Assembly: GCA_052034935.1 (NCBI GenBank)
Contig: JBPOIB010000001.1
Span: 74,746 to 138,745, forward strand
Source of the DNA: Candidatus Moraniibacteriota bacterium
GTDB taxonomy: Bacteria > Patescibacteriota > Minisyncoccia > Moranbacterales > UBA1568
Reading direction: 5' to 3'
DNA length: 64,000 nucleotides
Below the pieces are notes generated by a model, which did no database searches, was not told the DNA's origin, and saw only the letters and a list, made by a program, of their open reading frames with translations. Shown here piece after piece: positions 11,950-55,367 of the stretch (positions within the stretch are counted from its first letter, which is position 1; each line of letters starts with the position of its first letter). A program made the translations under genes and the position numbers.

Positions 11950-12007
11950 GAAAAAAACGCCCCCGATGCATGCGATGCACCGAGGGACGATGGAGGCCGT
12001 ACTTGGC

Positions 12008-13084: not shown

Positions 13085-13126
13085 ATCATGCTCCTTTCGA
13101 GCGTTGGAAAAACCGGAAGGTCAAGC

Positions 13127-14125
13127 TTAGGCGAGATGCTTCTGCAGCCGTTCACTGTCGTTCACGAGGTCCATGAAGAACCGCGGTCCTTGGCGATACC
13201 AGGCTGGTCCGGAAGTGCACTGGACAGCCCGAGCGCCGACATCGAGGTAGTCAGCAGCATCGTCACCCGTGAGAATGCCGCCGCAGCCGATGAGATCGAT
13301 CTTGCTCCAGGGCGGGAGCTGCTCGAGCGTTCGTTTGATCAAGCCGATTGAAATCGGCTTCAGGATCGGTCCCGAGAGCCCGGCCCGGCCGTCGAAGGGT
13401 GTCGTTACTGGCGCACCATCCGATCTGAGCACGCGGCAATTGGCGAGCGTGTTGCTGAAGACGATCGCGCGCACGAACGGGTAACGATCGATGAGTCTGA
13501 CCATCGTCTCGACGAAACCCTCCGGCACTACTGGGACATTGGTGAAGTCGATGCCGGGGTGGGCCTGCGAGAGTGCATCGCGTTCGGATGCGGTGATGTA
13601 GGGCGAGAGCTTGATCCAGATCGGCTTCGTGAGCTGGCCGCCGCGGTGGAGCTTTTCCAGGGCGACGAGCGTCGCTTGAGCGTTCTCGCAGCTGTAGGCA
13701 TCGGGGACCTTTCCGGTATTGCCGCAGCCCCAGTTCACTTCGATGGCCGTGATACTGTCCCGGCGGTTGGCGAGCCAAACGCACATCGCGTATTCATCGG
13801 CTGAGAAAGCGGCGATGCTCGCAATGGTCGGCCGGTCGACCGGGACAGTGTCGAAGCGCTCGAGCGATTCTTCAATGCCCGGGTTCGGCATTCCGAACGA
13901 GTTGAGTCCGATTCCGTGTTCGCGAAAATCCGTCCAGTCGTCCGGCCATTGCACAACGCCATCGTTCTGAGGGCGTTCATGCTGGGTGAACGAACCGGCG
14001 ATGACCGCACCGAGCGAAACGTCACTTCGCAGGTACGGGATGAGATGACGTGGGTCCTTGCAGACGCCGGCACCAAGGATGATGGGGAGGGAAAGCGTCA
14101 GTCCGCCCACCGAGTAGGTTTCCAT
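13127..14125 (-). CDS. pyrD: Dihydroorotate dehydrogenase, class 1-like (Cys active-site base)
   Basis: IEVNWGCGNTGK matches the class-1 DHOD motif (L. lactis NLSCPNVPGK), and GCGGILTGDDAADYLDVGARAVQ matches its C-terminal FMN site. The start is placed at the ATG preceded by AAAGGAG (the track ORF begins at an upstream alternative start). Confidence 0.75.
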   Translation of the reverse strand: METYSVGGLTLSLPIILGAGVCKDPRHLIPYLRSDVSLGAVIAGSFTQHERPQNDGVVQWPDDWTDFREHGIGLNSFGMPNPGIEESLERFDTVPVDRPTIASIAAFSADEYAMCVWLANRRDSITAIEVNWGCGNTGKVPDAYSCENAQATLVALEKLHRGGQLTKPIWIKLSPYITASERDALSQAHPGIDFTNVPVVPEGFVETMVRLIDRYPFVRAIVFSNTLANCRVLRSDGAPVTTPFDGRAGLSGPILKPISIGLIKRTLEQLPPWSKIDLIGCGGILTGDDAADYLDVGARAVQCTSGPAWYRQGPRFFMDLVNDSERLQKHLA

Positions 14126-14345
14126 GGTCAACTCCTTTCGGGGTTTGGTTGTCAAAGGTCGAAACCCTCGGGAATCGAGGATTGGCGGCATTCTACCAGC
14201 TGGAATCGGACTGTCAATCAATGTGGAACGGGCATTTTCGGCCAGCATCTTTACAATCAGTGAGCGTTGCGGTAGGCTCGAGGCGTTCCTAAAGACCCGG
14301 GGAAATACCCCGGATTTGTTCTTACCCAAACGAAAGGACGAGGTC

Positions 14346-15620
14346 ATGGATACCACCGAAGTCGGCCTCGTGCTTGAAGTACGGACCACTGAAACGATTC
14401 GGCCCGAAGTGAAAGATCGGGCGAAAGAAATGCTGGCTGCTGTTTTGACGAAGGCCGGCATGACGGGCTGCTGGCGCTATGACATCCTCATGAGCGAATA
14501 TCGAGCCCTGCCGGATCCATCGCTGTATCGGATGTCGGCAGCGCTTTTGGGCGATACCAAGAGCATGCTCCATATCGCTGTTCGCTCCAGTCTCATGCCC
14601 GGCGGAGCCGTCGCTGGCATTTTGCGCCAGACGGGATTCGTCGATTTTCAGGGACTGCTCAATCGTCTCTTGCCGGCCATCGATGATGGCAACCGGTCCA
14701 ATTGGCAGCCGACTGTCGTCCGAGAAGAGCGGACATCGATGGCACCGAGGGGATTGGCCGATATCGAGGCCGAGCTCGAGAAAGAGCGAATGCAGCCGCA
14801 AGGCTCTCCGATCCGGTCGCTTCCGTTTGTAGATGGCACCGGCCGCGTGATGAGAAACGAGGATGCTCATCGGAGAATGCGGGCCATTCCGCCAAGAAAT
14901 CCGGTTCGCTCTTCGGAGCCGCATGACGTTCGTACGCCCGTGCTTCCAGCTTGGCCACCGCCTAGTCGCTTGGCTTGTCAAGACGGACCGACCTGCGGGA
15001 TGGCTGTTGAAAGAGTCGACCGGGCGATACCGGCGGCAGTATCGCCGCCTGCCTTGCATCAGAATGTCCCGAACGGGATAGAAGGAGAGACAAGCATGTC
15101 TTCATTCGACGACGAGCAACGGCTCGAACGATTTCTCATCGCAGCGGTCCGCGGTACCGCGGACGGCGTTTTTTCCGGCAAAGCGGTCACGCCGGTGGTG
15201 AAGGAGGTTTTTCCGGAGCGCTCCGGCAAAGGGCTGGTCGGGGGGCTGTTCTTCAGGCTGGAAGGTCTGAAGTGGATTACCCGCTTCGCTCCGGGGCAAT
15301 ACCAGCTGGAACGACTGTTTCTGGATGCACATCAGGAAGAGCTGGGGCATGTCAAGCTCTCGCCACGTCCGGCATTGCCGCACGCCAAACCGAAGCCGCG
15401 GAAAGCGGCCGGTAAGCCGTCGGCTGTTTCGGCAGAGCCGGCAATGTCTTCGCCGGGCACTTTCGAGGACTGGGTCAAGTCGCTCGCAGAAGAGCGTTTG
15501 GTTTTGACTGAGGCAGTAACGAGAGCAAGGGGAGCGCTCGCCGCTTTCGATGAGCGCTATCGAATCGCGCTCGGTCCGCTGCATGAACAGCTCTATCCCG
15601 TTCCGCCCGAAGCCGGCTGA
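14346..15620 (+). CDS. Hypothetical protein (no recognisable domain; Pro/Arg-rich central region)
   Basis: A 424-aa ORF in high-GC DNA. AAAGGACGAGG lies 3 nt before the ATG, and GC3-rich codon usage is consistent with coding. No motif was recognised. Confidence 0.45.
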   Translation: MDTTEVGLVLEVRTTETIRPEVKDRAKEMLAAVLTKAGMTGCWRYDILMSEYRALPDPSLYRMSAALLGDTKSMLHIAVRSSLMPGGAVAGILRQTGFVDFQGLLNRLLPAIDDGNRSNWQPTVVREERTSMAPRGLADIEAELEKERMQPQGSPIRSLPFVDGTGRVMRNEDAHRRMRAIPPRNPVRSSEPHDVRTPVLPAWPPPSRLACQDGPTCGMAVERVDRAIPAAVSPPALHQNVPNGIEGETSMSSFDDEQRLERFLIAAVRGTADGVFSGKAVTPVVKEVFPERSGKGLVGGLFFRLEGLKWITRFAPGQYQLERLFLDAHQEELGHVKLSPRPALPHAKPKPRKAAGKPSAVSAEPAMSSPGTFEDWVKSLAEERLVLTEAVTRARGALAAFDERYRIALGPLHEQLYPVPPEAG

Positions 15621-15704
15621 ATCTGGTCGCCTGTTCTCATCCCGTGTCGTAGCAAGAGCTGCGGCACGGTTTTTTTGTCGAATCTTGCGAGTTTTGGGGA
15701 GTCG

Positions 15705-15734
15705 TTGAAGGAGATTTGTCGCCCGTGATATACT
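15705..15734 (+). promoter_or_regulatory. Sigma70-like promoter TTGAAG-N18-TATACT (TG-extended) upstream of the small ORF/ftsB
   Basis: A TTGAAG box, then TGATATACT ending 18 nt before the ATG at 15752. A T-run terminator-like sequence lies upstream at ~15672. Confidence 0.35.
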
Positions 15735-15751
15735 AGCTGAGGAAGAAATCT

Positions 15752-15862
15752 ATGAGTTTTAAGTCGCGCCACAAGAAGATTTATTATGTCTGGGTCGTCA
15801 TTTCGGCCTTGGTCGCGCTTTCTATGGTGCTCTTTCTCATCGCGCCGTTATTCATGTACTAG
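15752..15862 (+). CDS. Small (36 aa) single-TM membrane protein
   Basis: MSFKSRHKKIYYVWVVISALVALSMVLFLIAPLFMY. A GAGGAAG Shine-Dalgarno lies 7 nt upstream, and a promoter is present. It shares the MSF(K/R)S N-terminus with the downstream FtsB-like gene. It is too short for the ORF track. Confidence 0.35.
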   Translation: MSFKSRHKKIYYVWVVISALVALSMVLFLIAPLFMY

Positions 15863-15871
15863 GTCTGGCGT

Positions 15872-16264
15872 ATGAGCTTCCGATCCCTGTGGACCCGCCT
15901 GGGACTGGTCGTCCTCATCGGTATCGGCATCGCCGCCGGTTGGGCGAGCTTCGGCCAATATGAGCGAAGCGTCCGGATCCAGGCCGAAATCGATACGCTG
16001 CGCCGCGAAGCTGAGCGTATCGAGCGGGAAAACGCAACGCTCTCGGAGAAAATCCAGTTCTTTGCTTCGCCCGACTTCAAGGAAAGCGAGGCAAAAGAGA
16101 AGCTCGGGCTGCGCCGCCAGGAGGAGAAGGTAGTGGCAATCGAAGGTGATCTGCGGCTCCCTCCGAAAGAAGGTATCGAAAGAGTTGACGATGGGAATAC
16201 GGCTCATATGGTTGCTTGGGATGTGCCCAATTATGAGAAGTGGTGGAAGCTTTTTTCGAAATGA
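15872..16264 (+). CDS. ftsB: Septum formation initiator family protein (FtsB/DivIC-like)
   Basis: An N-terminal TM helix, then a coiled coil (IQAEIDTLRREAERIERENATLSEKIQFFASPDF…EAKEKLGL) characteristic of FtsB/DivIC. Confidence 0.7.
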   Translation: MSFRSLWTRLGLVVLIGIGIAAGWASFGQYERSVRIQAEIDTLRREAERIERENATLSEKIQFFASPDFKESEAKEKLGLRRQEEKVVAIEGDLRLPPKEGIERVDDGNTAHMVAWDVPNYEKWWKLFSK

Positions 16265-24915: not shown

Positions 24916-25323
24916 TTATTTCACCTCGGAATTTCTGAGAAAAAGCCAGGCGATGATGAGATACCCTCCAGTGGAGAGCGGAATACTCCACCAGGGAAAA
25001 CGATAATGAGCGATTATTATCGTACCGACGACGAAAAGACCAGTCATCCAGATAAGACGAGTGGGTGCTGTCTTCTCTGAATCAGTCTCCGGTAAACTTC
25101 TCCGTAAGCGAGCGAGCAGCGCCGTGAGGGTGATGAGGAAGACGCTAAATTTGACGAGCGAAAGGCGTGCGGTGACGAAGGTCGGGAGGAGCACTTCAAG
25201 GGCGTAGAGTCCGGCAAAGATGATCCAGCCGAGGAGGACGGCATCGAAAAGAAGGTTGGCAAAAATAGCAAGGCTACCGTTTTTTTTCGTGCGTTCGAGG
25301 AGTCCGTCCAGTGGAGATGTCAT
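24916..25323 (-). CDS. Small 4-TM membrane protein (possibly GtrA-like)
   Basis: A 135-aa protein with four hydrophobic segments, adjacent to glycosyltransferases. The family assignment is weak. Confidence 0.4.
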   Translation of the reverse strand: MTSPLDGLLERTKKNGSLAIFANLLFDAVLLGWIIFAGLYALEVLLPTFVTARLSLVKFSVFLITLTALLARLRRSLPETDSEKTAPTRLIWMTGLFVVGTIIIAHYRFPWWSIPLSTGGYLIIAWLFLRNSEVK

Positions 25324-25333
25324 AAGATAGCTG

Positions 25334-26488
25334 TTATTTCAGTCCGAATCGAGTAAGTAGCCGGTCCTTTACCTTCGCGAGGAGTATTGCTCCATTTTCG
25401 GCATCGAGGCGTGTGTCGAATGCGAGTGTAAGCGTCGAGATATCGATGGCGACATCATTTCCCGAGAGGGTTACTTCATAGTCTGATCCAACCGAACCAG
25501 CGAGGGATTTGAGGTCGATGGTGCAATCGAGGGTGCGTGGGAGGAGACCGGCCTTGGCTGAGCAGGCCGCCTCGAGAGAGGTATCGGGCGCAGTAGTGAC
25601 GATCGGATGAGTTTTTGAGAGGAGGAAATCAAGGTAGTCGCCGGAGTTTAGGGGGCGGCGAAAACCGGATTCGATGAGGAAATACTCGCCAGTGTCTTGG
25701 TTTTGGAAAAGCGTTCCGTCGGGATGCGGCGCTCCCATGAGAAAAATCCGGCCGCGCTTATAGATGCCGAGATCCTCCTCGTTTCCTGGAATGACGTCTT
25801 CAAAGCGGTAACCGAGCGCGAGAAATATTTCGGCGCTCCCGATCGGCCGCATATCACGCTCGCTTGTGATAAGAAAGATGCCGTCGGCGAACGAGACGAG
25901 ACTGCCGACACGGAAGCCGATGAATTCATTGGACACAGGGTGCTGCGCGCGCCATTCAGGACTTTCGATCCGGGCGGCGGCCATCGGGAAACGCGAAAGG
26001 AAGGCGGTTTCGCTGACGAACGGATAGAGCTGATCCCCCGAAAGCTGGTAGTAGGTGTCTTCAATACGGAAGAGTGAGGTCATGTCAGGGCGTTCGACGG
26101 GCGCGCCAAGTGGAAAGAGATAGGCTCGGTAGTTTTTTCGAATGACCACGTCGATAGAGGTAGGGGTCGCGGATCGCTTCTCAAGGTCAATGCCGACCGA
26201 AAGGACAGAGAAATCACCGAGTGGGCTCGTATTCGCGACCAGCTTTTCTGAGGGATTGATTTTTCCGTTCGTCTTGACTGAATCGTCGGTTCCGCGCGGA
26301 TCAAAGATCTGATTCTTGCTTGATTTCGGGTTCCGGAAATCGAAACCGGTCGTGATCGTCGGAAAAAGAAAGCTGTAAGCGAGCGCTCCACCAGAAAGAA
26401 ACAGAACAATAAAGAGCATAATGCGGAGCCGGACGTAGAGGGGCTGTAGTGCGTCGGGAATTGGCGTAAAGGGCGGGTGCATGATCAT
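25334..26488 (-). CDS. Membrane-anchored hypothetical protein
   Basis: A 384-aa protein with one N-terminal TM helix, no recognisable motif, and co-orientation with the GT-C gene. Confidence 0.5.
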   Translation of the reverse strand: MIMHPPFTPIPDALQPLYVRLRIMLFIVLFLSGGALAYSFLFPTITTGFDFRNPKSSKNQIFDPRGTDDSVKTNGKINPSEKLVANTSPLGDFSVLSVGIDLEKRSATPTSIDVVIRKNYRAYLFPLGAPVERPDMTSLFRIEDTYYQLSGDQLYPFVSETAFLSRFPMAAARIESPEWRAQHPVSNEFIGFRVGSLVSFADGIFLITSERDMRPIGSAEIFLALGYRFEDVIPGNEEDLGIYKRGRIFLMGAPHPDGTLFQNQDTGEYFLIESGFRRPLNSGDYLDFLLSKTHPIVTTAPDTSLEAACSAKAGLLPRTLDCTIDLKSLAGSVGSDYEVTLSGNDVAIDISTLTLAFDTRLDAENGAILLAKVKDRLLTRFGLK

Positions 26489-26496
26489 GGATGGTC

Positions 26497-28242
26497 TTAC
26501 TCGGTGATTCGGAAGAGAAGCGCGTCGCTCGTTACCTCAAGCTTTTCCGGCGCAGCATACGGGGCCTTTGCGCTGAGAGCGGAGAAAGAGAAAGAGATGG
26601 TCTGGATAGGGAGGAGTCGATCACCGAAAGCGCCATAATAGCGTCCGAGAGAATCTTCAGCCGCGAGGAGATAGGTGCGGTCGAACTGCGATCGATCGAG
26701 CCGGGCGTAGTCTTCGGGATTGAAGAAATAAACGGCGTTCTTTCCAGAGAGAGAGGAAAGCGGTCCCGCGATGAGCGCGAAGGGATCACCGGATGCGCCA
26801 CGGTCAATCAGAATAAGATCGCGCTCAGTGAAAAGCGCCGCCAGATACTCTGCCTGAGCGAGAAGGCCTCGCTGTTCTCTTGTCTGAATGGCCTGAAGAG
26901 CGGGATAACACTGGAAGGCGAAGAGGATGGTAAAAACAGCGGGAATGACACGGCTTCTCCAGGTATGAGCAGACTGTGCGGCAAGCCCCTCGATGAGGCA
27001 GATAGTCGCGAGGAGAAAGAGTGGAAAGAGTGTGAAGGCGTAGCGTCGGAGGAGCCAGGGATGGTCATCAGAGATATGTCCGTTGATGAGGTAGAGGAAC
27101 GTCGGTGCGGCGATGAGAACGGGTATAAGGAGAGTGAAGCGGCGTTTCATGATGCCGAAGAGGAGCGAGGCGATGCCGAGAATGAAAATAGGGAAGAGGC
27201 CGTAAGAGAAAAGAATCGGACCGAGCGCGGGATCGGAGCTGCTCCCGGCTGCCGCCGTTCCGCTCAGTTCCTGCCAGTACTTGAGCGCCGCTTTGCCGAT
27301 CATGGTGTAGAAGGGCAGGTTCATGAAAAGGTCACGGAGAAAGAGGAGGATGAAGAAAAGCAGTGTCGGGATCACCCAGTGTTTGGGGAGCGCGAAGAGA
27401 TGGGAACGCAGATGAGGTCGCCAGATGAGCAGGAAGAAGGTGATAGCGGCAATGACGAATCCTTCAATCCGTGTCAGGGCGAAGAGAAAGGCTGTAAGAA
27501 TGACGAGCGGGAGAAAGCGAGTATCATTATCACGATCGAGTTTTGTCAGGGCGCCGGCGAGGACGAGATAGAGAAGCAGGGCGAGGTTTTCGGTGAGGGC
27601 GAGCTCGGTAAGCCAGATCGTAATGAATGATGTCGCAAAGAGTCCGGTCCCGTAGAACGCGGAGCGGCGGGACACGAAGAGACAAAGAAGCTCAAAAAAC
27701 GACCAGCCGGAAAGAACGAAGAGAAAAGCGTTTCCGACGAGGAGCCCGTGGATGCCGAACCAGCTGACGAAGAGTGCGAGGTAGCTGGTGTAGCCGAGCG
27801 GAAACTGTGTGATGAGCGCGCCTGATTCCGTATAGGAAAACCCAGGGAAATTGAGCGCTCGTCCGGGTCCGTAGATGTCGAAAAAAACATCCGATGCCGC
27901 GCTTCGGAAAGCGAGCTCATGATTCTCTGCGAGTTCTACGGCAGCGAGACCGATCGAGCCCTGGTCACGGCCGGTGAAGATGCTCGGTTCGGCTCGGAAT
28001 GCGATGATGAATGCAAGGAATGCGAGGCTCGCGAGTAAAAGAAGGCGGCCGTGGTCTTTGGACCGGAAAAGTGCAGTGATGGCTATGCTAGTGGCTCCGA
28101 AAAAGAGGATGAGCGCGAGCGATGCGAAGAGCGGGGAAAACCAACCGAAGAGAGCAAGCGTGAGAGCAAGCATGAGAGCAAGCACAAAACCGGAGAGTGC
28201 GGTCAGCCATGGCGTCCGCAAGAAGGCGGGGAGGAAGTTCAT
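26497..28242 (-). CDS. GT-C superfamily glycosyltransferase (PMT/ArnT-like, ~15 TM)
   Basis: A 581-aa polytopic membrane protein. The first-loop DQGSIGLAAVELAE region and overall topology resemble GT39/GT83 enzymes. Confidence 0.55.
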   Translation of the reverse strand: MNFLPAFLRTPWLTALSGFVLALMLALTLALFGWFSPLFASLALILFFGATSIAITALFRSKDHGRLLLLASLAFLAFIIAFRAEPSIFTGRDQGSIGLAAVELAENHELAFRSAASDVFFDIYGPGRALNFPGFSYTESGALITQFPLGYTSYLALFVSWFGIHGLLVGNAFLFVLSGWSFFELLCLFVSRRSAFYGTGLFATSFITIWLTELALTENLALLLYLVLAGALTKLDRDNDTRFLPLVILTAFLFALTRIEGFVIAAITFFLLIWRPHLRSHLFALPKHWVIPTLLFFILLFLRDLFMNLPFYTMIGKAALKYWQELSGTAAAGSSSDPALGPILFSYGLFPIFILGIASLLFGIMKRRFTLLIPVLIAAPTFLYLINGHISDDHPWLLRRYAFTLFPLFLLATICLIEGLAAQSAHTWRSRVIPAVFTILFAFQCYPALQAIQTREQRGLLAQAEYLAALFTERDLILIDRGASGDPFALIAGPLSSLSGKNAVYFFNPEDYARLDRSQFDRTYLLAAEDSLGRYYGAFGDRLLPIQTISFSFSALSAKAPYAAPEKLEVTSDALLFRITE

Positions 28243-28308
28243 AGTGGCTCTATTATACGCAAAATCAGGTCCGGCTTCAATTTACCAAAGACTCTCAAAG
28301 GCGGTACA

Positions 28309-30786
28309 ATGAAAGAAATACAAAAAGACTGCTCCATGGGCTTTTTTTTCTGGTACTACACGAAAGGGATCGCGGGCATCGCGCATATCGCGCGCGGCTA
28401 TGTTCGCTATGTCTGGCATCGTTTCAATATCGCCGGTCTTTTTCGGACGCTCCTCTCCCCCTGGCATCGCGATGTGAGTTTCCAGACCTGGCGCGGCTTC
28501 CATCCGATCCTTGCGGCGGAAGCGCTCATCAATAACCTCGTGACACGGATACTGGGCGGTGTCATGCGTCTTGCTGTCATCGCTTTCGGTCTGGGCATGA
28601 TGCTTCTCGTTGGTGCGTTGGTACTGGTGCTCTCCGGATTCGCGTTTGTCGCGCCGATCCTTCTCGTCGGAGGTAGCTTCGTGCTTGGTCTCATCCTCGG
28701 AACCGTCTTCGGGATTGCTCTTTTTATCGCCGCGGCGGTCGTTATCTTGGTCGGCGTTCTCGCGTGGCACGAATCGGAACGCAATTCCAAAGACTATACG
28801 CTTGAGCCCGAGCATGCGCCTTGGCGTGACCGGGCGCTTCTCCGACTCGGAATTCCGCCCAAGGAAGTATCGGCCGAAAATATCGCTACGCTTGAGAACC
28901 GGGAAGCATTCCTCACTTCGCGTCGGATCGCGCCCGAGCTTTTCGACCAGGCTTGGGAAGTTGAGCGACAGCGCTATCTCGAAAAAGAGCAGGTAGAACG
29001 CTTCTGGGATTGGGGGCAGCTGAAGAAAGCACCGCGGATTGGTAAGTACTGGTCATATGCTTACACACCGCACCTTGACCATTACGTCATCGATCTCTCC
29101 GAGGGCGATAACTCTAACTATCGCGGTCAGCAGGCGATCGGCCGGGAGAAGACCATCGAGATGCTCGTCCTCACGCTGACTCGCCCGACGGATAACAGCG
29201 CTCTTCTCGTCGGCGATCCCGGTATCGGCAAGCGCACTATCGTGCATGCCCTGGCCGAGCGGATCCGCGAAAACCAGTTTACACACCCTGCGCTCGATGA
29301 AGCGCGCTTCGTCATTTTCGATCTCGGCCAGGTCATCTCGGATGCTCGGAGCCAGGGAACGGACCCGAAGGGTCTCCTCCGTGATCTCCTGAATCAGGTG
29401 GTGTACGCCGGAAATGTCGTCCTCATCATTGAGGGCATCGATATGTTTCTCGATCCGAGCAATGACATGGCGGTCGGGGATGTCCTCAATGACTATCTCT
29501 CTCTCCCGACGTGCCGTATCATCGGGCTGATGACGGGTGAAGCGTATCATACGCTCGGCCAGCGGCAGATTCCCGCGCTCAAGTACTTCGAAACTGTTCA
29601 GGTGCTGGAGCCAACGCGCGAAGACACGATTCGCATCCTGCTCGATACGTTCAAGACGCTTGAGAAAAACCGGCCGGTCTTCACGCTCCAAGCGCTCCAT
29701 GGAATCGTCGAGGGCGCCGAGCGCTACAATTGGGAAATGCCATTTCCGGAGCGGGCGATTGACCTCGCTCAGGAAGTACTCGTCTATTGGGAGAAGCATC
29801 CTGAATTGCCGTTCATCGAGCGAACGATTGTCGAGGACTTCCTTGAGGAAAAATCGGGGATTCCGATGGGAGAGGCGAGCGAGGAAGAGCGCGAGAAACT
29901 TCTCAATCTCGAGTCCCTCCTCCATGAGCGGGTCATCGGTCAGGCGCTCGCCATCAAGCAGATGTCGGAGGCATTCCGGAAAGCACGCTCAGGACTCGGC
30001 AATGACAAGAAGCCGATCGGGTCCTTCCTTTTCCTCGGTCCAACCGGTGTCGGCAAGACGGAGACCGCGAAAGCACTCGCCGCCGTCTATTTCGGTGACG
30101 AGGACCGGATGGTGCGGCTTGATATGAGCGAATTCCAGACACCCCAGTCCATCGATGAGCTCATCGGATCGGCTGAAATGAATGTCCAGGGTCGGATGAC
30201 GACACTCATGAAAGAACACCCGTACTCGATCCTACTCCTTGACGAGCTTGAGAAAGCGTACCCTCGCGCCCTTGACCTTTTCCTTCAGATCCTTGATGAG
30301 GGCTATGTGACGGACGGCTTCGGTCACAAGGTGAATTTCCGGAACGCTATCATCATCGCGACCTCGAATGCGGGTGCTGATATCATCCATGCAGCGACGG
30401 CGGAGGGTCGGTCGATGGTCGATGTTGAGGACGAGCTCATGAGCACGATCATCTCGAAGGGGCTTTTTCGCCCGGAATTCCTCAACCGCTTCGACGGCGT
30501 GATTCTGTTCAATTCGCTTACGGCTGAAGAAATGGAACAGGTCACCGCGCTTAAGCTTCAGGCGTTCGCTGACAAGCTCTACACGGAGAAGAAAATCCAT
30601 CTCTCGTTCACGCCGGAAGCAATCCGTGCGGTTGTAGCGAACGGCTATGAACGCGAGTACGGCGCCCGCTCGATCAATCGCTACATTGCCGATGTCGTGG
30701 AGGATACGATCGTGAAACAGCTTCTCCAGGGTACATTGGTCGAAGGTGCAGAGGTCACCTTCACCGAGGCGGATCTGGCCGAATAG
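28309..30786 (+). CDS. Membrane-anchored Clp/Hsp100-family double AAA+ protein (degenerate D1, canonical D2)
   Basis: The N-terminal ~190 aa carries ~4 TM helices in place of a Clp N-domain. D1 reads IGREKTIEMLVLTLTRPTDNSALLVGDPGIGKRT (Walker A degenerate, K-R-T) with a Walker B-like LIIEGID. D2 is canonical: VIGQALAIKQ…GPTGVGKTETAKALA, LLLDELEKA, sensor ATSNAG. No ClpB M-domain and no IGF/L loop were seen. The start was moved to ATG 28309 (Shine-Dalgarno AAAGG), because the track ORF start overlaps the convergent GT-C gene. Confidence 0.8.
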   Translation: MKEIQKDCSMGFFFWYYTKGIAGIAHIARGYVRYVWHRFNIAGLFRTLLSPWHRDVSFQTWRGFHPILAAEALINNLVTRILGGVMRLAVIAFGLGMMLLVGALVLVLSGFAFVAPILLVGGSFVLGLILGTVFGIALFIAAAVVILVGVLAWHESERNSKDYTLEPEHAPWRDRALLRLGIPPKEVSAENIATLENREAFLTSRRIAPELFDQAWEVERQRYLEKEQVERFWDWGQLKKAPRIGKYWSYAYTPHLDHYVIDLSEGDNSNYRGQQAIGREKTIEMLVLTLTRPTDNSALLVGDPGIGKRTIVHALAERIRENQFTHPALDEARFVIFDLGQVISDARSQGTDPKGLLRDLLNQVVYAGNVVLIIEGIDMFLDPSNDMAVGDVLNDYLSLPTCRIIGLMTGEAYHTLGQRQIPALKYFETVQVLEPTREDTIRILLDTFKTLEKNRPVFTLQALHGIVEGAERYNWEMPFPERAIDLAQEVLVYWEKHPELPFIERTIVEDFLEEKSGIPMGEASEEEREKLLNLESLLHERVIGQALAIKQMSEAFRKARSGLGNDKKPIGSFLFLGPTGVGKTETAKALAAVYFGDEDRMVRLDMSEFQTPQSIDELIGSAEMNVQGRMTTLMKEHPYSILLLDELEKAYPRALDLFLQILDEGYVTDGFGHKVNFRNAIIIATSNAGADIIHAATAEGRSMVDVEDELMSTIISKGLFRPEFLNRFDGVILFNSLTAEEMEQVTALKLQAFADKLYTEKKIHLSFTPEAIRAVVANGYEREYGARSINRYIADVVEDTIVKQLLQGTLVEGAEVTFTEADLAE

Positions 30787-30888: not shown

Positions 30889-32343
30889 ATGCGCACCGAA
30901 GGTTCACATAAGGCACTAGCGTTTGCGGTCGGGACATTCATGCTGTTCGGGGGTTATTTTGCCTACGCCTCCTATCTCTCGGGGATTCCCAGTACCTTGC
31001 CGTTTATTCAGACCATCTCAGCCAAGGATGGTGAGGATGACAGTAACGATGAGGAGGAAGATGACAATGAGGACGAAGAGAAGGAACAAGAGAAGGCTGA
31101 GAAAGAAAAGGAAAAGGCAGCGGAAAAGAAGAAAAAAGAAGATGAGAAAAAACGAGAGGCTGCCAAGAAGGCCGCTGAACGGTCTTACAAATCTTCGAAT
31201 TCTGGTTCAGGAAGCGGTGTGAAGCTTCGCAGCGACGGAACAGTCGACGATGACTCTTTTGAGGATGAGTCGGAAGATGATGACTATGTGAATGGCGTGA
31301 AGGTCCGTGGTGATGGCAGTGTCGATGATGATGCCGAAGAGAACGAGGTCGGGGATGATCGAATGGAACAGCGTTCGGGCAAGGATGAGCGCGAAGCCAT
31401 GTACAAGGACCGGGAGAAGACGCTCGAGCGTGTGAATGAGAAGATTGCTCAGGCCGAAGAGAAGATACTGGAAAAGCAGGCCGAGGGCGTCGATGTGACG
31501 GCAGCCCTGGCCGAGCTCGAGAAGGCAAAGGCAAAAGTTGCCGGTATTGAATCCGCTTTTGCGACCGGAGCGGTTGTGGATATCAAATCCCTCGTGAAAG
31601 AAGTGGAGCGTCTCGCGCATTTCTCTCGTGGCAAAGTACTGAAGGCTTCGGAGGATGTCGCAAAAGATGTCGCGAAGGTCGCGAAGCGCATCGCTCAGAC
31701 CAAAGAGAAGATTGCTTATCTCAAAGCAATGGGCGGCGATGCGACCAGCTATGAATCGAGCCTGTCGGAGGCAGAATCCGCCTTTGCTGACGCGAAGTCG
31801 AAAATCGCCCTCGGAGGCAGCGACCTCCTCGCGGGCCTGACGTCCTTGGAGATTGTTGAGCGGCGGGTGAAGTCGATCAAGAATTCAGTCGAAGGAGCAT
31901 TGCTCGCTCTCGGAGTTTCCGACGAGGATGAGTTCGAGACCGAGCATGATGAGGATGTCGAGGATGCCTCGGATGATCTCGTCGAACTGGCGGAAGCCGA
32001 TGAGGACCATCTCTCGCTCAAGAATCTCGCCAAGACCCATAAGGAAGAGGCAATCAAAGTCTCTGGTCTCGTCTCTCGGCTCGATGACCGCAGCCGAATC
32101 GTCCGTGGCCTTGTTGGAAACGATTCCGATATCCTGAACGAGCTCCAGAACGAAGTAGCTATTAATGAAGCGCGGATAGCGGCGATGCAGACGGCGGTGG
32201 CCGAGATCGAGGATCAGGACCTGTCTGAACTCATAAATGAGAAGATTGGCGATCTCAAATCTGAGAACGCGAAGCTCGCGAACTTCATTAGTTCTCAGTC
32301 TCTCGAAACCGGAGTCTTTGGCTGGTTCTTCAAATTGTTTTAA
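30889..32343 (+). CDS. Membrane-anchored acidic low-complexity / coiled-coil protein
   Basis: An N-terminal TM, then a D/E/K-rich tract (DGEDDSNDEEEDDNEDEEKEQEKAEKEKEK…) encoded by a purine-rich repeat at ~31020-31160. Two VK(L/V)R(S/G)DG(T/S)VDDD repeats follow, then long heptad-like helices, and a C-terminal GVFGWFFKLF. Confidence 0.6.
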   Translation: MRTEGSHKALAFAVGTFMLFGGYFAYASYLSGIPSTLPFIQTISAKDGEDDSNDEEEDDNEDEEKEQEKAEKEKEKAAEKKKKEDEKKREAAKKAAERSYKSSNSGSGSGVKLRSDGTVDDDSFEDESEDDDYVNGVKVRGDGSVDDDAEENEVGDDRMEQRSGKDEREAMYKDREKTLERVNEKIAQAEEKILEKQAEGVDVTAALAELEKAKAKVAGIESAFATGAVVDIKSLVKEVERLAHFSRGKVLKASEDVAKDVAKVAKRIAQTKEKIAYLKAMGGDATSYESSLSEAESAFADAKSKIALGGSDLLAGLTSLEIVERRVKSIKNSVEGALLALGVSDEDEFETEHDEDVEDASDDLVELAEADEDHLSLKNLAKTHKEEAIKVSGLVSRLDDRSRIVRGLVGNDSDILNELQNEVAINEARIAAMQTAVAEIEDQDLSELINEKIGDLKSENAKLANFISSQSLETGVFGWFFKLF

Positions 32344-32371
32344 AAGAAACAATACTAGAGTGGAAATTAGG

Positions 32372-32394
32372 GGCCCGGATTTTCCGGGCTTTTG
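32372..32394 (+). terminator. Rho-independent terminator
   Basis: GCCCGG-attt-CCGGGC followed by TTTT, after the acidic protein gene. Confidence 0.55.
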
Positions 32395-32451
32395 ATTTAT
32401 AGTAAATTGTTTAAATCTGCTAGAATAAAAAAGCACTATTTTTGAAAAAAT

Positions 32452-32913
32452 ATGAAATTTGTTCAGGTTAGCGTCGGAAAAAAACAAAAAATAGTCATCA
32501 GTCTGTTCGTCATAATACTGATAGTAGTTTTTGCTCTGGTGATAAAGAGAGTCTACGTTGATCGTGATTATCTTTTGATAAATGAGGTTGTGTGCGATCC
32601 CGGTACGGAGACGTGTTTCAAGCGGCTGTGTGAAGAATGCGAGGCGGAAGGCGAAGAATATGAGTTTTATAAAAAACAGTTCGTTTCTGCAAAGAATGTT
32701 TCGATGTGTAACCCGAGCCAAGAAGAATGCTCAGAGCTTATATGTGCTGAAACCGAGGGCTGTCAGGAACAATACTGCGACGAGACAAATGTTCCAGAGG
32801 GCGAGGAGTGTTCTAGTGCCGAAGATGCTTCCTCTGAAGACGAACCGTCTGATACCGAGGGAGAGGTAGATGAGGAAGGTGTCGTTGAATCTCCAGAGAA
32901 TGAAGGAGCTTAA
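32452..32913 (+). CDS. Small membrane-anchored Cys-rich, poly-acidic protein
   Basis: A 153-aa protein with an N-terminal TM, then 10 Cys in a D/E-rich ectodomain (CDPGTETCFKRLCEECEAEGEE…CAETEGCQEQYC…), and an acidic tail EGEVDEEGVVESPENEGA. The gene is ~38% GC, far below its surroundings. Its stop codon lies 3 nt before the ATP-grasp start. Confidence 0.55.
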   Translation: MKFVQVSVGKKQKIVISLFVIILIVVFALVIKRVYVDRDYLLINEVVCDPGTETCFKRLCEECEAEGEEYEFYKKQFVSAKNVSMCNPSQEECSELICAETEGCQEQYCDETNVPEGEECSSAEDASSEDEPSDTEGEVDEEGVVESPENEGA

Positions 32914-32916
32914 TCT

Positions 32917-34212
32917 ATGCGCGTACTGTTCATCTCCCGAGAGCTTGGGGCCTCTGAACTTGTGCTCAAATTGAAGGCCGAGGGCTGTGAAGTGAAGCTC
33001 TACATACAGGACGAGGCGGTTTCAGACTGTCTAGAGGGGATGATTTCAAAGGTAGATGACTGGAAATCAGAGCTTCCTTGGGTCGGAAAAGATGGACTTC
33101 TCGTTTTTGATGATATCGGTTTCGGCGATGACCAATCCAGACTGAGGAAAGAAGGCTATCGGGTTGTTGGCGGAAGTGCTGGCGGCGACCAGATTGAAAT
33201 AAATCGACTGGTTGGAAAGCAGGTGCTCGAAGCGAGTAGTATGCTGGTATTACCAGCTCATACCTTTTCTCATCCCTCTGAAGCGAAAAAATTTCTCCTC
33301 GCGCACGCCGATTCTCGGTGGGTAGTAAAGGTGAACAATGGACATGTGAGCTCCCTCTGTTATATTGGGCAGCTTCAGGATCAGAGCGACCTCCTCGGCA
33401 TTCTCGATTTGTATGAGGAACGAGGGATAAAAGATGTCTACCTCCAGCAGCGTGCGGAAGGAGTGGAGGTAGGGGTGGGCCGCTACTTCAATGGCAACGA
33501 CTGGGTTGGTCCGATTGAGATGAATGTAGAGCACAAATCTCTGATGTCTGGGAATGTCGGACCGAAGACCGCAGAGATGGGAACACTCATGTGGTACGAC
33601 GCTGATGAGAGTAATCCGCTTTTCCTCGCGACACTCTCCCGGCTCAAAAAGCATCTGTCGGACATCGATTTTCGAGGAGATGTCGATATAAATTGTATCG
33701 TAAATGGCGATGGCGTCTGGCCTCTTGAGTTTACGGCGCGATTCGGTAATCCTGCGACGGCACTTCAGATTGAGCTGCACGACTCTCCCTGGGGAGAATT
33801 CTTGTCTGCTATTGCTGACGGGAAGCAGTATGATCTCAAATATAAAAAAGGGTTCGGAATAACAGTCACGCTCGCCGTGCCTCCTTACCCATATTGCTTC
33901 GAGCTTGATTCAGCTGAGACGTCCAAGGGTTTGCCGGTGGCATTCACGAGATTCGTCGCCTCGGAAGAACTCGTTCATTACGGTTTCGAAGAGGTTAGCA
34001 CCGACAGTAAAGGTCGGCTATATATCTCCGGAAGCCGGGGGTGTGTCGCTCATATTTCTGGCCACGGAAAGACTATCGAGTTGGCTCGTAAGGGAGCGTA
34101 TGATCGGGTGAAAAACCTGATTGTCCCAAAATCATTCTATCGAACGGATATTGGTCTGGAGTTCATCGAGCATGACTGCGATAGGCTCAAGCAGTGGGGA
34201 TGGTTAAAATAA
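32917..34212 (+). CDS. PurD-family ATP-grasp ligase, divergent (lacks canonical N-terminal GGGGREHA loop)
   Basis: EFTARFGNPATA… and the C-terminal DIGLEFIE align with PurD EFNCRFGDPETQ… / DIGWRAIE. The ATP-grasp core is present (VVKVNNGHVSS…). The N-terminus (RVLFISRELGASELVLKLKAEGCEV) is not PurD-like. Confidence 0.65.
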   Translation: MRVLFISRELGASELVLKLKAEGCEVKLYIQDEAVSDCLEGMISKVDDWKSELPWVGKDGLLVFDDIGFGDDQSRLRKEGYRVVGGSAGGDQIEINRLVGKQVLEASSMLVLPAHTFSHPSEAKKFLLAHADSRWVVKVNNGHVSSLCYIGQLQDQSDLLGILDLYEERGIKDVYLQQRAEGVEVGVGRYFNGNDWVGPIEMNVEHKSLMSGNVGPKTAEMGTLMWYDADESNPLFLATLSRLKKHLSDIDFRGDVDINCIVNGDGVWPLEFTARFGNPATALQIELHDSPWGEFLSAIADGKQYDLKYKKGFGITVTLAVPPYPYCFELDSAETSKGLPVAFTRFVASEELVHYGFEEVSTDSKGRLYISGSRGCVAHISGHGKTIELARKGAYDRVKNLIVPKSFYRTDIGLEFIEHDCDRLKQWGWLK

Positions 34213-34221
34213 AAGGACCCT

Positions 34222-35184
34222 ATGATTGAATATCATCAATGGCTGCTTGTGGCTTTCATCGCGCCGACGCTCTGGGCCATCACGAATATCATTGATGTAT
34301 ATTTTGTCGAGTCGATATACCGTGACGAGTATGATGGAGCGATCATCTCCGGTCTCTTCCAGATTCTTCCGTGGATTTTTGTGCCGATTGGCCTTATTTC
34401 ATTCGCGCTCTCTGAGTATCAGGCAACCCCACTTTTCTTTGCCGGGTTCTTCTATATTACCGCTCTCTTCTTCTTCTTTCGCTGCTTGTTCAGACAAAAC
34501 GACGCTTCCCTCATCCAGATCCTCTGGAATCTGAATGTCCCGCTCACTCTCTTCGCCAGCTGGCTTTTGTGGCAATCGCCGCTCCACCCTGTACAGTACG
34601 TCGGCTGTGCGCTTGTATTTCTGGGAGTTTGCGCGCTGACAATAAAGGGCCAAGTACCGTTCGCTATGATTCGGTCCGTCGCCCTTCCGGTCTCTGGCGC
34701 CATTGTGTTCCTCACACTCAGTATGCTGCTTTCTGGATATGGCTACGATCGTAGCACCGGCAATTTCTTTGGTTCGTACCTTCTCTTTTCACTTGGTTCT
34801 TTCGCTGCCGCCATTGGGCTGACGCTTATCCGAATGCTGTCCCGGAGATCATCACAGGAGGCGCATACTGTTGCTCATCTCGCTAGGCTTTCCTCAAAGT
34901 ACTTCATCGTTTTTTTTCTAGCTGAGCTTTTGGCGCTCTTCGGCACGATTGCTTCTCAGCGGGCACTTGATTTGAGTCCCTCAGTCGGTCTTGTGGCGAC
35001 CATAGAAAGTTTGACCCCGGCGATCATTATTCTCCTCAGTATTATCCTGGCTCTGACCATGAAAGTATTCCGGCCAGACGATGCTCGATGGGGTAAGCTC
35101 CTTCAGGAACAGACATTCGGGATGAAGGCCAAAATCATTTCCACGGTTATTATTGCTGTAGGTATCTACTGTATTGCCCGCTAG
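34222..35184 (+). CDS. 10-TM membrane protein, DMT/EamA-like transporter (putative)
   Basis: Two 5-TM halves typical of the drug/metabolite transporter superfamily. No other motif was seen. Confidence 0.45.
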   Translation: MIEYHQWLLVAFIAPTLWAITNIIDVYFVESIYRDEYDGAIISGLFQILPWIFVPIGLISFALSEYQATPLFFAGFFYITALFFFFRCLFRQNDASLIQILWNLNVPLTLFASWLLWQSPLHPVQYVGCALVFLGVCALTIKGQVPFAMIRSVALPVSGAIVFLTLSMLLSGYGYDRSTGNFFGSYLLFSLGSFAAAIGLTLIRMLSRRSSQEAHTVAHLARLSSKYFIVFFLAELLALFGTIASQRALDLSPSVGLVATIESLTPAIIILLSIILALTMKVFRPDDARWGKLLQEQTFGMKAKIISTVIIAVGIYCIAR

Positions 35185-35211
35185 AGGGTAAAATCTGTTA
35201 AAATATAAAGT

Positions 35212-36879
35212 ATGTTCTGCACCGATATCCCATCTCCAATTGCTCTTATTTTTTCGAGCAGCACGCCCACCTTGCTGTACTATTCGCATCTCCCGGTCAT
35301 TTTCACAGCGCTTATTGTGGGGTTGCTTGTCTACTCGAAGAATAAGAGCCTTGAGAGCAGACTTCTCCTGGCCTTGGTTTCACTCTTTTCTCTCTGGAAT
35401 TTTATCGACTTGATAAATTGGACGAACATCGACAGTCGGATAATCATGGTTTCTTGGACATTCATGAATTTTGTCTTCGTCCTCATCCCGGCGGTGGCCC
35501 TGTATTTTTCGTACGTCTTTCTTGAAAAGAAGGAGCCCCCGCTCTTCTTTTTTTTGGCGGGTATCATCCCGTTCTTCCCATTTGCATTTCTTTTACCAAC
35601 GAGTCTAAATCTGATCGGATTTGACCTGTCGATTTGTGAAGCGGTAGACGGTGAATTCAACTTCTACTTCCATCTTCTTCAGGCATTTTATTTCGCCTGG
35701 CTTATAGCCTTTCTGGTTTACCAGTGCATTAAGAACTGGCGGAACAATAGAAAACCAGTCATCCTCTTTTCATCGGGAATAGCCTTCTTTATCTCGAGTT
35801 TCTATGCAGGGAATCTTGTCGCGGATCTTCTGGACACATGGGAATTCGAGCAGTATGGTCTTTTCGGAATGCTTGTCTTTCTCACACTCCTCGTGATTAT
35901 GATTGTCAAATATGAGGCGTTCAATATCAAGATACTTGCGGCCCAGGCGCTCATGGGGGGATTCATCGTCCTGATTGGAGCTGAATATTTCTTTGTCTCT
36001 TCGACGACTGGTCTTGTTTTGACGACGATAACCTTTTTGCTAGCTGTTGTCTTTGCCTATTTCCTCATTCGTTCAGTGCGGCTCGAGATAGCACGCAAAG
36101 AGCAGTTGCAGGATATTGCCAACCGACTCTCCGTAGCTAATGCGGAACTGCATCGGCTCGATACAGCCAAGAGCGAGTTCATCTCAATCGCATCGCATCA
36201 ACTGCGGACGCCGCTGACTGCAATCAAGGGATTTGTTTCTCTTCTTCTCGAAGGAGCGTACGGCAAACTCGAGCCACCGGTTGCTGATACGCTCAACAAA
36301 GTCTACCTTGCCAATGCTCGCCTTATGAATCTGGTTGAGAATCTCCTCAATATTTCGCGAATCGAAGCGGGTCGCATTCAGTATCAGTTTGTGCCGACGC
36401 GGGTCGAAGAGCTCCTCGAGGAGCTTCGGGATATTTTCCAGTTGGCGGCCCACGAAAAAGGCATCACGCTTCAAATAGCTGTTCCGGAAAAGCCGCTTCC
36501 AATTCTCTCTCTCGACAGCGCTAAAATTCGCGAGGTTATCTCGAACGTAATTGACAATGCAATCAAGTACACCGAAACAGGTTCGGTCACCGTTGTTTCG
36601 GAACTCGTAGGGGAGAAAGTGATTATCACTGTTGCTGATACTGGGGTTGGTATCGATCCGGATGATTTACCGCACCTATTCCAAAAATTTGAACGTGGCA
36701 AGAATGCTGCCCAGATCAATGTCTCGAGCACTGGTCTCGGACTCTATGTCGGCAAGAACTTCATCGAGGCGCACGGCGGGACGATTCGGGCCGAGTCGGC
36801 TGGAAAGGGAAAGGGCTCCCGGTTTATCCTGGAGTTCCCGCTTCAGACGCTGAAGCTTGAAAAGAAGGCTCTGGGCTGA
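35212..36879 (+). CDS. Sensor histidine kinase with N-terminal multi-TM (7TM-like) sensor domain
   Basis: ~8 TM helices, then a HisKA H-box (EFISIASHQLRTPLTAIKG) and HATPase_c N/G boxes (NVIDNAIKYT, DTGVGID, GTGLGLYV). Confidence 0.85.
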   Translation: MFCTDIPSPIALIFSSSTPTLLYYSHLPVIFTALIVGLLVYSKNKSLESRLLLALVSLFSLWNFIDLINWTNIDSRIIMVSWTFMNFVFVLIPAVALYFSYVFLEKKEPPLFFFLAGIIPFFPFAFLLPTSLNLIGFDLSICEAVDGEFNFYFHLLQAFYFAWLIAFLVYQCIKNWRNNRKPVILFSSGIAFFISSFYAGNLVADLLDTWEFEQYGLFGMLVFLTLLVIMIVKYEAFNIKILAAQALMGGFIVLIGAEYFFVSSTTGLVLTTITFLLAVVFAYFLIRSVRLEIARKEQLQDIANRLSVANAELHRLDTAKSEFISIASHQLRTPLTAIKGFVSLLLEGAYGKLEPPVADTLNKVYLANARLMNLVENLLNISRIEAGRIQYQFVPTRVEELLEELRDIFQLAAHEKGITLQIAVPEKPLPILSLDSAKIREVISNVIDNAIKYTETGSVTVVSELVGEKVIITVADTGVGIDPDDLPHLFQKFERGKNAAQINVSSTGLGLYVGKNFIEAHGGTIRAESAGKGKGSRFILEFPLQTLKLEKKALG

Positions 36880-45601: not shown

Positions 45602-45669
45602 ACAGCTGCTCGGGAAAACGCTAGATTGAGAGCGGTCCGGTGCTTTCTGGCGGAGGGAGACGAAAATTT

Positions 45670-45746
45670 GGTCGCATAGTTCAGTTGGTTAGAACGTTCG
45701 ATTCACATTCGAAAGGTCCCTGGTTCGAGTCCAGGTGCGACCACCA
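45670..45746 (+). tRNA. tRNA-Val (anticodon CAC), CCA encoded
   Basis: A cloverleaf read by hand: acceptor GGTCGCA/TGCGACC, D-arm GTTC/GAAC, anticodon stem TTCGA/TCGAA with loop TTCACAT, and T-arm CCTGG-TTCGAGT-CCAGG. Confidence 0.85.
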
Positions 45747-45762
45747 AATATATTTCTTGAGT

Positions 45763-52210: not shown

Positions 52211-52374
52211 GGGCAGCCGGATCCGAGTCGGAGCGATCTGTAAAGAAAGGAGCTCATCCGTGAGCGACCCATCCGTTTTGAAACCGTCCAGGGATCAAGC
52301 GTGGGTCGCTCATATCGACCCACCTTTGTTCCTGGGTTTACCAAATGAACCTATGGCTGAAGGAGGCCGAAATC

Positions 52375-54354: not shown

Positions 54355-54382
54355 GTCCACAAGTCGGGGGAGTTCCCTCGTA

Positions 54383-54420
54383 GGGGCGGCGTCGATCACA
54401 CTCGATGCCGCCCTTTTTCT
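54383..54420 (+). terminator. Rho-independent terminator
   Basis: A 12-bp stem GGGCGGCGTCGA / TCGATGCCGCCC with loop TCACAC, followed by TTTTT. Confidence 0.6.
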
Positions 54421-54515
54421 TTTTCCGTCGCAGTAAGGTGGACAAGAGTAAAAAAAGCCGATTGCAGCAGTCATTTTGAGGCTCATGAAAGCCATTTTTT
54501 TATACTGATACGGGC

Positions 54516-54544
54516 TTGACAAAAGCCAGTTTTTGCTCTAGTAT
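54516..54544 (+). promoter_or_regulatory. Promoter TTGACA-N17-TAGTAT
   Basis: TTGACAAAAGCC…TAGTAT, ~85 nt upstream of the ATG at 54628. A strong hairpin (CCGGCATTTCCC-ggat-GGGAAATGGCG, 54563-54590) lies in the 5'UTR. Confidence 0.5.
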
Positions 54545-54627
54545 GTAGGGTCATCTTCCTTGTCCGGCATTTCCCGGATGGGAAATGGCGAACCTCTTTA
54601 CCAACCAGCCTTGAAAGGGCGTACACC

Positions 54628-55344: not shown

Positions 55345-55367
55345 CCTGCAAGCCTGCCGCAAGCCCG

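Follow-up and report, generated by a model that had tools for sequence, protein, structure and literature searches.

A predicted membrane-integrated Clp-type ATPase of Patescibacteria with a degenerate first and a complete second AAA+ ring

Introduction

To our knowledge, all characterised Hsp100/Clp machines are soluble, carry pore-loop tyrosines, and are partnered with a peptidase or with Hsp70; in the disaggregases of the ClpB type, the coupling to DnaK is provided by the M-domain. Hsp100-type rings that work at membranes include HSP101 of the Plasmodium PTEX complex and chloroplast Hsp93/ClpC at the inner envelope. FtsH keeps its cytoplasmic AAA+ ring at the membrane by means of N-terminal membrane helices, and in NSF, p97/Cdc48, and Pex1/Pex6 the two rings divide the labor, one being the motor and the other mainly a means of assembly. 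Torsins, relatives of Clp/Hsp100, associate with membranes via an N-terminal hydrophobic domain and are without aromatic pore loops (PMC5425593). Here we analyze a gene, termed TM-Clp below, in a stretch of 64,000 nucleotides (nt) from a Candidatus Moraniibacteriota bacterium (assembly GCA_052034935.1, contig JBPOIB010000001.1, positions 74,746 to 138,745), which we refer to as the window. We found no published description of a membrane-integrated Hsp100/Clp protein in the Candidate Phyla Radiation (CPR)/Patescibacteria.

An original prediction, made from the letters of the window, had described the product as a membrane-tethered Hsp100 with a single active ring. Comparison with relatives and structure modeling lead us to conclude that this patescibacterial gene encodes a predicted membrane-integrated Clp-type ATPase with a structural first module (D1) and a complete second module (D2), and without an M-domain, a ClpP loop, or pore tyrosines. 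The tethered, single-active-ring architecture turned out to be conserved across the lineage.

Results

A Clp-fold protein with one degenerate and one complete AAA+ module

The protein (Table 1; all residue numbers are counted from the ATG at 28309) consists, in order, of an N-module, a hydrophobic block of 65 to 73 residues, a putative Clp N-domain remnant, D1, D2, and the ClpB_D2-small domain. Its closest sequence relatives in the PDB are Staphylococcus aureus ClpC (E 4e-97) and Escherichia coli ClpB and ClpA (to E 1e-74). An AlphaFold2 (AF2) monomer model, built on 62 family sequences and with a mean predicted local distance difference test score (pLDDT) of 85, superposes on the ClpC, ClpB, and ClpA protomers (about 580 aligned columns; target TM-score in Foldseek, about 0.8). 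With two tandem AAA+ modules, a D2-small domain, and the Clp fold, the protein is a class I Clp/Hsp100. The NCBIfam models for ClpB, ClpA, ClpG, ClpK, and ClpV match it at 300-380 bits, a long way under their cut-offs of 885-1900 (ClpB, 380 against 1232; ClpA, 353 against 993; ClpV/TssH, 299 against 885). In databases the relatives are labeled "AAA family ATPase" or "ATP-dependent Clp protease ATP-binding subunit."

Motifs were compared in 89 family sequences (the target and 88 relatives) aligned with five canonical Clp proteins. In Pfam, the D1 region yields no more than weak matches of a generic P-loop kind. Its Walker A follows the family pattern GxPG[IV]G[KR][KRQ][ST], with a basic residue in the position of the Mg-binding Thr/Ser; its Walker B reads IE[NG]I, with no Asp-Glu pair and with Glu-Asn in most relatives; and the arginine fingers are lost, a trait that holds across the 88 full-length relatives. 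The dead D1 of the original prediction (GDPGIGKRT, LIIEGID) thus stands on careful alignment, being degenerate throughout the family, and the same alignment rules out an intact D1. D1 nevertheless remains under purifying selection and is not in decay: the mean majority-residue frequency reaches 0.61 in D1, compared with 0.75 in D2.

D2 is covered by Pfam AAA_2 at residues 568-729 (E 5e-43), and its Walker A, Walker B, sensor-1, arginine finger, and sensor-2 are nearly invariant in the 89 sequences. The motifs previously taken to mark it as canonical (GPTGVGKTE, LLLDELEKA, and TSNAG) are all in place. Because it keeps its own arginine finger, its sensors, and the Walker B Glu, D2 looks like a self-sufficient, fast ATPase.

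The D2 region also matches the PADLOC models DolB (E 2e-36) and PDC-M37B (E 8e-30), which could suggest an anti-phage defense ATPase resembling DolB of the Dodola system. These matches are confined to the generic AAA_2 core. The neighboring genes have no PADLOC matches and show no DolA partner. The gene, moreover, is single-copy, syntenic, and kept across species-level genomes near housekeeping genes. A defense role is hardly credible, and we give the same low standing to an assembly or frameshift artifact that fused two genes, as the open reading frame (ORF) is uninterrupted in 70 of 73 genomes.

Elements of known Clp machines that are missing

The segment between D1 and D2 measures 60 amino acids (aa) here and 59-61 aa in the family, compared to 61-63 aa in the ClpA-like references and 182 aa in the ClpB-like reference, from which we conclude, in agreement with the original prediction, that there is no M-domain. 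The absence of a ClpP-docking loop was likewise borne out: the tripeptide [ILVMA]G[FL] is found in the corresponding region neither here nor in 85 of the 88 relatives, and four of the five reference Clps have it as LGF or IGF, the exception being the ClpB-like reference P0098. Pfam detected no Peptidase_M41 domain in the protein. No ClpP gene and no second Clp gene were found in the window or in the retrieved loci of relatives, a search confined to these regions of the genomes.

These observations bear on whether the protein could be a membrane-tethered equivalent of ClpA or ClpC that delivers substrates to ClpP for regulated proteolysis. ClpC and ClpA are its closest relatives in sequence and structure, and some databases give relatives the Clp protease label; the docking tripeptide that ClpA-like references carry as LGF/IGF is, however, absent, and the ClpA and ClpB scores fall far under their cut-offs. 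We consider a ClpP partnership very improbable.

Neither ring has the pore-loop tyrosine with which Clp proteins grip a polypeptide, and the 88 full-length relatives share this trait. The D1 pore-1 loop has SDARSQG where the references have AGTKYRG. The D2 pore-1 loop reads AEMNVQ; it follows the pattern [ML][NG][VI]x within the Moranbacteria clade, whereas across the wider family, as sampled by 50%-identity representatives, it varies and no aromatic residue in it is conserved. A tethered but otherwise conventional unfoldase or extractase, comparable to a protease-free FtsH or to Msp1, would pull membrane proteins or aggregates through its pore and grip them by aliphatic pore-loop residues. 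The full Clp architecture and the complete D2 motor would suit such a machine, the membrane anchor would place the pore beside membrane clients, and an aliphatic [ML]-[NG]-[VI] is indeed conserved in the D2 loop of Moranbacteria. Yet both rings are without tyrosine, the D2 loop is unconserved in the wider family, and there is neither an M-domain for coupling to DnaK nor a ClpP loop, which leaves this explanation quite unlikely.

Another possibility is a nucleotide-dependent switch or scaffold that threads nothing, in which the D2 cycle would control how a membrane complex assembles, disassembles, or changes conformation and no polypeptide enters the pore. In neither ring is there a conserved aromatic pore-loop residue, and the D2 loop is shortened and variable; Torsins offer a precedent, as Clp/Hsp100-related, membrane-associated proteins without aromatic pore loops (PMC5425593). 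What makes a Torsin-like switch somewhat unlikely is that D2 has retained an arginine finger of its own as well as both sensors and the Walker B Glu, and that a two-ring Clp body with D2-small is the layout of a ring translocase.

The N-terminal 250 residues

The N-module contains the motifs FFxWYY, TLxSPW[KH]RD, WRGFHP, and NxxxRxxGxxxR; W15, Y16, G20, P51, W52, D55, G63, P66, N76, R80, G83, and R87 are invariant or nearly so. Its mean majority-residue frequency (0.62) is on a par with that of D1. No Pfam family matched the N-module, and a comparison of the N-terminal 260 aa with Pfam and NCBIfam returned only noise (e.g., Claudin_2 at E 0.0013).

The hydrophobic block that follows is a single uncharged stretch at about residues 88-153 (81-153 if defined by Kyte-Doolittle hydropathy), bordered by the nearly invariant R80 and R87. 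Uncharged hydrophobic residues 88-111 are followed by W/Y112 (in 40 of 62 sequences), P116 (60 of 62), hydrophobic residues 117-130, a Gly/Pro/polar turn at 131-132, hydrophobic residues 133-152, and W/Y153 (53 of 62); the conserved aromatic residues are of the belt type. The AF2 model has two long helices here, 66-130 and 132-160 (pLDDT 86-93). Two to three membrane spans are more likely, judging from the model and the single block, than the "about four" helices first proposed. Both flanks carry a net positive charge; the arrangement favored by this has both ends in the cytoplasm, two spans, and a short re-entrant segment. The block is the least conserved region of the protein (mean majority-residue frequency, 0.38), as membrane anchors are expected to vary.

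Residues 154-252 form a soluble helical linker, which we interpret as a shortened remnant of the Clp N-domain, recognizable transitively through longer relatives. Pfam gives no Clp_N match for the protein, and a direct hhalign comparison of the linker with Clp_N is weak (P 0.03). The linker does align with the post-membrane region of relatives of about 890 aa (hhalign 92.8%, E 4e-7), with a deletion of about 40 aa, and the post-membrane region of longer relatives in turn matches Clp_N (93.2%, E 3e-7). From this chain, the Clp N-domain would have collapsed, with the membrane part added ahead of it. The original prediction was thus right about a membrane region at the N terminus and probably wrong in having it replace the Clp N-domain.

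Distribution and the split and fused forms of the system

A full-length search retrieved about 90 proteins of about 816 aa with 37-95% identity, and those that are named belong to Moranbacteria, Patescibacteria, or Minisyncoccota only. A scan with an N-terminal profile, using one genome per species, gave 123 confirmed loci, 80 of which were kept; these are labeled Moranbacteria, Parcubacteria, Paceibacteria, or Patescibacteria, apart from some oddly titled third-party annotation (TPA) records. Among the latter, TPA metagenome-assembled genomes titled "uncultured Bdellovibrionales" or "Micavibrio" (L016, L017, L019-L023, and many others) carry the Moranbacteria type of gene and synteny, and one relative is labeled "Undibacterium sp."; all three labels are probably taxonomic misnomers for Patescibacteria bins.

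With HMMER, the N-terminal profile found 1324 matches (702 at E <= 1e-10) among 1.84 billion representatives, including hundreds of stand-alone proteins of about 125 aa that extend no further than the first hydrophobic segments. Among 148 of the 150 best matches, 51 have at least 600 aa and are TM-Clp proteins, and 80 have fewer than 200 aa. The stand-alone N-module proteins that are named come from Sungbacteria and Parcubacteria; a word-based search with one of them recovered only seven close relatives, all from Sungbacteria.

In all four cases that we examined, from Sungbacteria and other Parcubacteria (L008, 3084..6093; L011, 108..3061; L093; L094), the stand-alone N-module gene ends 0-15 nt before the start of a gene encoding a membrane-anchored, Clp-like protein. 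The four include two complete cases and a partial one; in the fourth, the sequence breaks off after 58 aa. The partner is 850-870 aa long, has two transmembrane helices of its own and a fuller Clp_N-like domain, and combines a degenerate D1 with an intact D2. As the N-module is a separate upstream gene in other Parcubacteria, the Moranbacteria gene is a fusion of a two-gene unit. The arrangement indicates a functional tie between the N-module and the Clp ATPase throughout the group.

A head-to-head operon with a putative GT-C glycosyltransferase

The TM-Clp gene stands head-to-head with a three-gene membrane operon on the minus strand (24916..28242). None of the three operon proteins has a sequence-family match; for the 581-aa protein, a PDB profile search, Pfam, and NCBIfam all returned nothing. 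Its AF2 model (pLDDT 90) matches ALG12, ALG9, STT3, PglB, ArnT, AftA, and DPY19 in Foldseek (E 3.5e-8 to 1e-4), from which we assign it a predicted GT-C fold, and one NCBI record names a homologue "glycosyltransferase family 39." Past the operon there is a gene for a GT4 glycosyltransferase. Of the 80 species loci, 63 have a homologue of the GT-C gene divergently upstream of TM-Clp, and this pairing extends to TM-Clp identities as low as about 35%.

GT-C enzymes are active on the outer face of the membrane, and this conserved neighbor invites the idea of a protein-export motor that would push substrates across the membrane by way of a channel made of its own helices and the N-module, in the manner of HSP101 in PTEX or of Bcs1, perhaps with the clients of the GT-C enzyme as cargo. 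The fusion of the ring to membrane helices and the conserved additional membrane subunit, the N-module, whether split or fused, would be in keeping with export. The gripping tyrosines, however, are missing; a channel would not be expected to be the least conserved part of the protein, as the membrane block is; and no secretion-system genes were seen in the neighborhoods that we looked at. We regard export as improbable.

Reading frame, start codon, and intergenic region

The gene lies in a continuous, stop-free frame (28051..30786, plus strand), and in 70 of the 73 complete species-representative loci the gene is likewise one stop-to-stop ORF, at least 816 codons long and identical in layout. 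The frameshift near 28.85 kb that would have refuted the original prediction is absent, and a two-gene artifact was rejected.

As a start, we prefer the ATG at 28336, which corresponds to M10. The exact 816-aa product is present in public collections, most homologues begin at the equivalent position with "M[NSH]FF," and the -10 hexamer of a promoter-like site on the plus strand overlaps the ATG at 28309. The latter, which had been predicted as the start, is possible, too; the choice concerns nine residues and affects no other result.

Between the two divergent transcription units, the minus strand has TTGAAG and TATAAT, 17 nt apart (10 of 12 consensus positions), and the plus strand has TTTACC and TACAAT, 18 nt apart, ending at 28310. 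The -35 hexamers of these promoter-like sites abut at 28280/28281.

Wider neighborhood

The acidic surface-protein genes that the original prediction had counted as context are syntenic in the closest relative (L001) only. Downstream of TM-Clp, they encode an acidic, coiled-coil-looking protein of 484 aa with an N-terminal hydrophobic segment (30889..32343, plus strand) and a Cys-rich acidic protein of 153 aa (32452..32913, plus strand), neither with a family match. As synteny does not extend beyond L001, the downstream acidic gene is no evidence for function. Also conserved in L001 is a 431-aa ATP-grasp protein (32917..34212, plus strand) that has subthreshold matches to GARS_A and GARS_C and may be a divergent PurD-like enzyme.

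In locus L006 (8363..16278), beside a divergent TM-Clp member, there are four or five paralogous genes for proteins of about 200 aa. The same locus encodes a surface protein with a WxL domain and a protein of 3649 aa that has a Peptidase_S74 domain. In the window, G+C ranges from 0.47 to 0.62 and is 0.58-0.62 in 12001..16000 and 52001..58000, as against 32001..36000. The listed ORF 45640..47088 (plus strand) begins upstream of a tRNA-Val gene on the same strand (45670..45746) and overlaps it, so that its true start, if it is a gene, would lie further downstream.

Table 1. Coordinates, in the window, of the TM-Clp gene, its encoded elements, and the divergent operon
Feature	Coordinates	Strand	Remarks
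TM-Clp gene	28336..30786	+	816 aa from ATG 28336; alternative ATG 28309 gives 825 aa
N-module (residues 10-87)	28336..28569	+	conserved, aromatic and basic
Hydrophobic membrane block (residues 88-153)	28570..28767	+	predicted from hydropathy and per-column statistics over 62 sequences
Soluble helical linker (residues 154-252)	28768..29064	+	read as collapsed Clp N-domain remnant
D1 AAA+ module (residues 253-510)	29065..29838	+	fold kept, catalytic motifs degenerate; aligns to ClpC D1
D1 Walker A GDPGIGKRT	29212..29238	+	Lys kept; Mg-binding Thr/Ser replaced by Arg or Lys
D1 pore-1 loop VISDARSQGTDPKG	29332..29373	+	no KYR tyrosine, compared with AGTKYRG of ClpC and other references
D1 Walker B VVLIIEGIDMF	29416..29448	+	Asp-Glu pair replaced by Glu-Gly
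D1 arginine-finger position PALKYFETVQV	29572..29604	+	ERRF replaced by LK[YF]F
D2 AAA+ module (residues 541-735)	29929..30513	+	all catalytic motifs; most conserved region (0.75)
D2 Walker A GPTGVGKTE	30037..30063	+	G[PSA][TS]G[VS]GKTE in all 89 family sequences
D2 pore-1 loop LIGSAEMNVQGRMTT	30160..30204	+	4 residues shorter than canonical GAPPGYVGYEEGG; no tyrosine
D2 Walker B ILLLDELEKA	30229..30258	+	motif alignment
D2 sensor-1 IIIATSNAG	30349..30375	+	motif alignment
D2 arginine finger RPEFLNRFD	30469..30495	+	motif alignment
D2 sensor-2 EYGARSINR	30655..30681	+	motif alignment; GAR
ClpB_D2-small C-terminal domain (residues 737-817)	30517..30759	+	Pfam PF10431, E 4.7e-18
Divergent intergenic region	28243..28335	.	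back-to-back promoter-like hexamers; consensus matches only
GT-C-fold membrane glycosyltransferase, 581 aa	26497..28242	-	predicted fold; invariant GRDQG motif in first loop
384-aa protein with N-terminal membrane anchor	25334..26488	-	no family match; accompanies GT-C gene in most loci
135-aa polytopic membrane protein	24916..25323	-	detectable conservation in closer relatives only

Discussion

Our overall reading, to which we assign a probability of roughly 40%, is that TM-Clp forms a ClpP-independent, membrane-integrated hexamer in which D1 is a static scaffold and D2 the sole motor, and that its client is membrane-proximal and connected with surface glycosylation. By analogy with other class I Clps, the hexamer would sit at the cytoplasmic face of the membrane, held there by 6 x (2-3) helices. 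As their motifs suggest, the D1 ring would be a scaffold that does not hydrolyze ATP and the D2 ring the only motor, and the machine would feed no protease. Without the gripping tyrosines, and with a D2 loop that is both short and variable, it is probably nonprocessive; rather than unfold proteins processively, it would more likely bring about short-range changes of conformation in a partner embedded in the membrane or close to it. The N-module may well be a docking or regulatory element. As the pathway that is served, we propose the assembly of surface glycoconjugates, because the head-to-head operon with the GT-C glycosyltransferase is conserved. Of the envelope-associated unfoldase or disaggregase that had been suggested originally, the link to the envelope is upheld by the GT-C pairing. 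The enzymatic part is less well supported, as there is no canonical pore tyrosine, the D2 loop is shorter and variable, and the M-domain is lacking.

Several observations weigh against this reading. The aliphatic residues of the D2 loop ([ML][NG][VI]) might still grip a polypeptide. The hydrophobic blocks of relatives (about 37, about 56, and 65-70 aa) fit no single simple topology. The GT-C pairing is missing in 12 of the 75 loci with enough flanking sequence (5 more are too short), and no GT-C gene stands beside the most divergent fused members or the split systems. The link to the GT-C enzyme may for these reasons reflect synteny at the level of a clade and not an obligatory partnership.

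A bolder version, which we consider unlikely, holds that the N-module and TM-Clp together make up a membrane machine specific to Patescibacteria, a new functional class of Hsp100 in which threading was abandoned and ATP hydrolysis by D2 powers a membrane process connected with GT-C-dependent surface glycosylation. If this were true, the process might be, for example, the assembly, gating, or export of surface glycoproteins in ultra-small episymbionts.

The family is conserved across a large uncultivated bacterial radiation, with a motor ring that its motifs predict to be live. Its conservation indicates that it is functional; in that case it widens the possible uses of the Clp ring and would supply a bacterial counterpart to Torsin and other membrane-associated relatives that are poorly understood. 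Its split and fused forms reveal a new conserved membrane partner, the N-module, and the pairing with the GT-C gene is a testable lead into envelope biogenesis in the Patescibacteria, the cell-surface biology of which is largely uncharted. Although its function is inferential, we expect TM-Clp to be of interest to AAA+ specialists as well as to those who study the patescibacterial envelope.

Comparison with known systems

ClpC and ClpA share with TM-Clp the tandem AAA+ modules, the short linker between D1 and D2, the D2-small domain, and all catalytic motifs of D2. They differ in that TM-Clp has a degenerate D1, no pore tyrosines, no ClpP loop, and a probably collapsed N-domain, to which it adds the N-terminal membrane block and the novel N-module. 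ClpB/Hsp104 is similar in giving the top NCBIfam score (ClpB), in about 40% identity over D2, and in having no ClpP loop, whereas TM-Clp is membrane-anchored and is without the M-domain (60 versus 182 aa), an active D1, and pore tyrosines.

Among machines that act at membranes, FtsH resembles TM-Clp in having membrane helices ahead of an AAA+ ring. Its ring, however, is built from a single classical AAA module, which has an aromatic pore loop and is fused to an M41 protease, in contrast to the two Clp-type modules of TM-Clp and its lack of a protease. HSP101 and Hsp93 are soluble proteins with active rings and canonical pore loops that work at the membrane by docking to distinct membrane proteins. 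The division of labor between an assembly ring and a motor ring recalls NSF, p97/Cdc48, and Pex1/Pex6, but these belong to another AAA+ clade, and their active ring keeps aromatic pore loops.

The nearest functional analogy appears to be Torsin. Torsins are single-module, lumenal, eukaryotic proteins without an arginine finger of their own that are activated by LAP1/LULL1, whereas TM-Clp is a bacterial, two-module protein that carries its own arginine finger (RPEFLNRFD) in D2.

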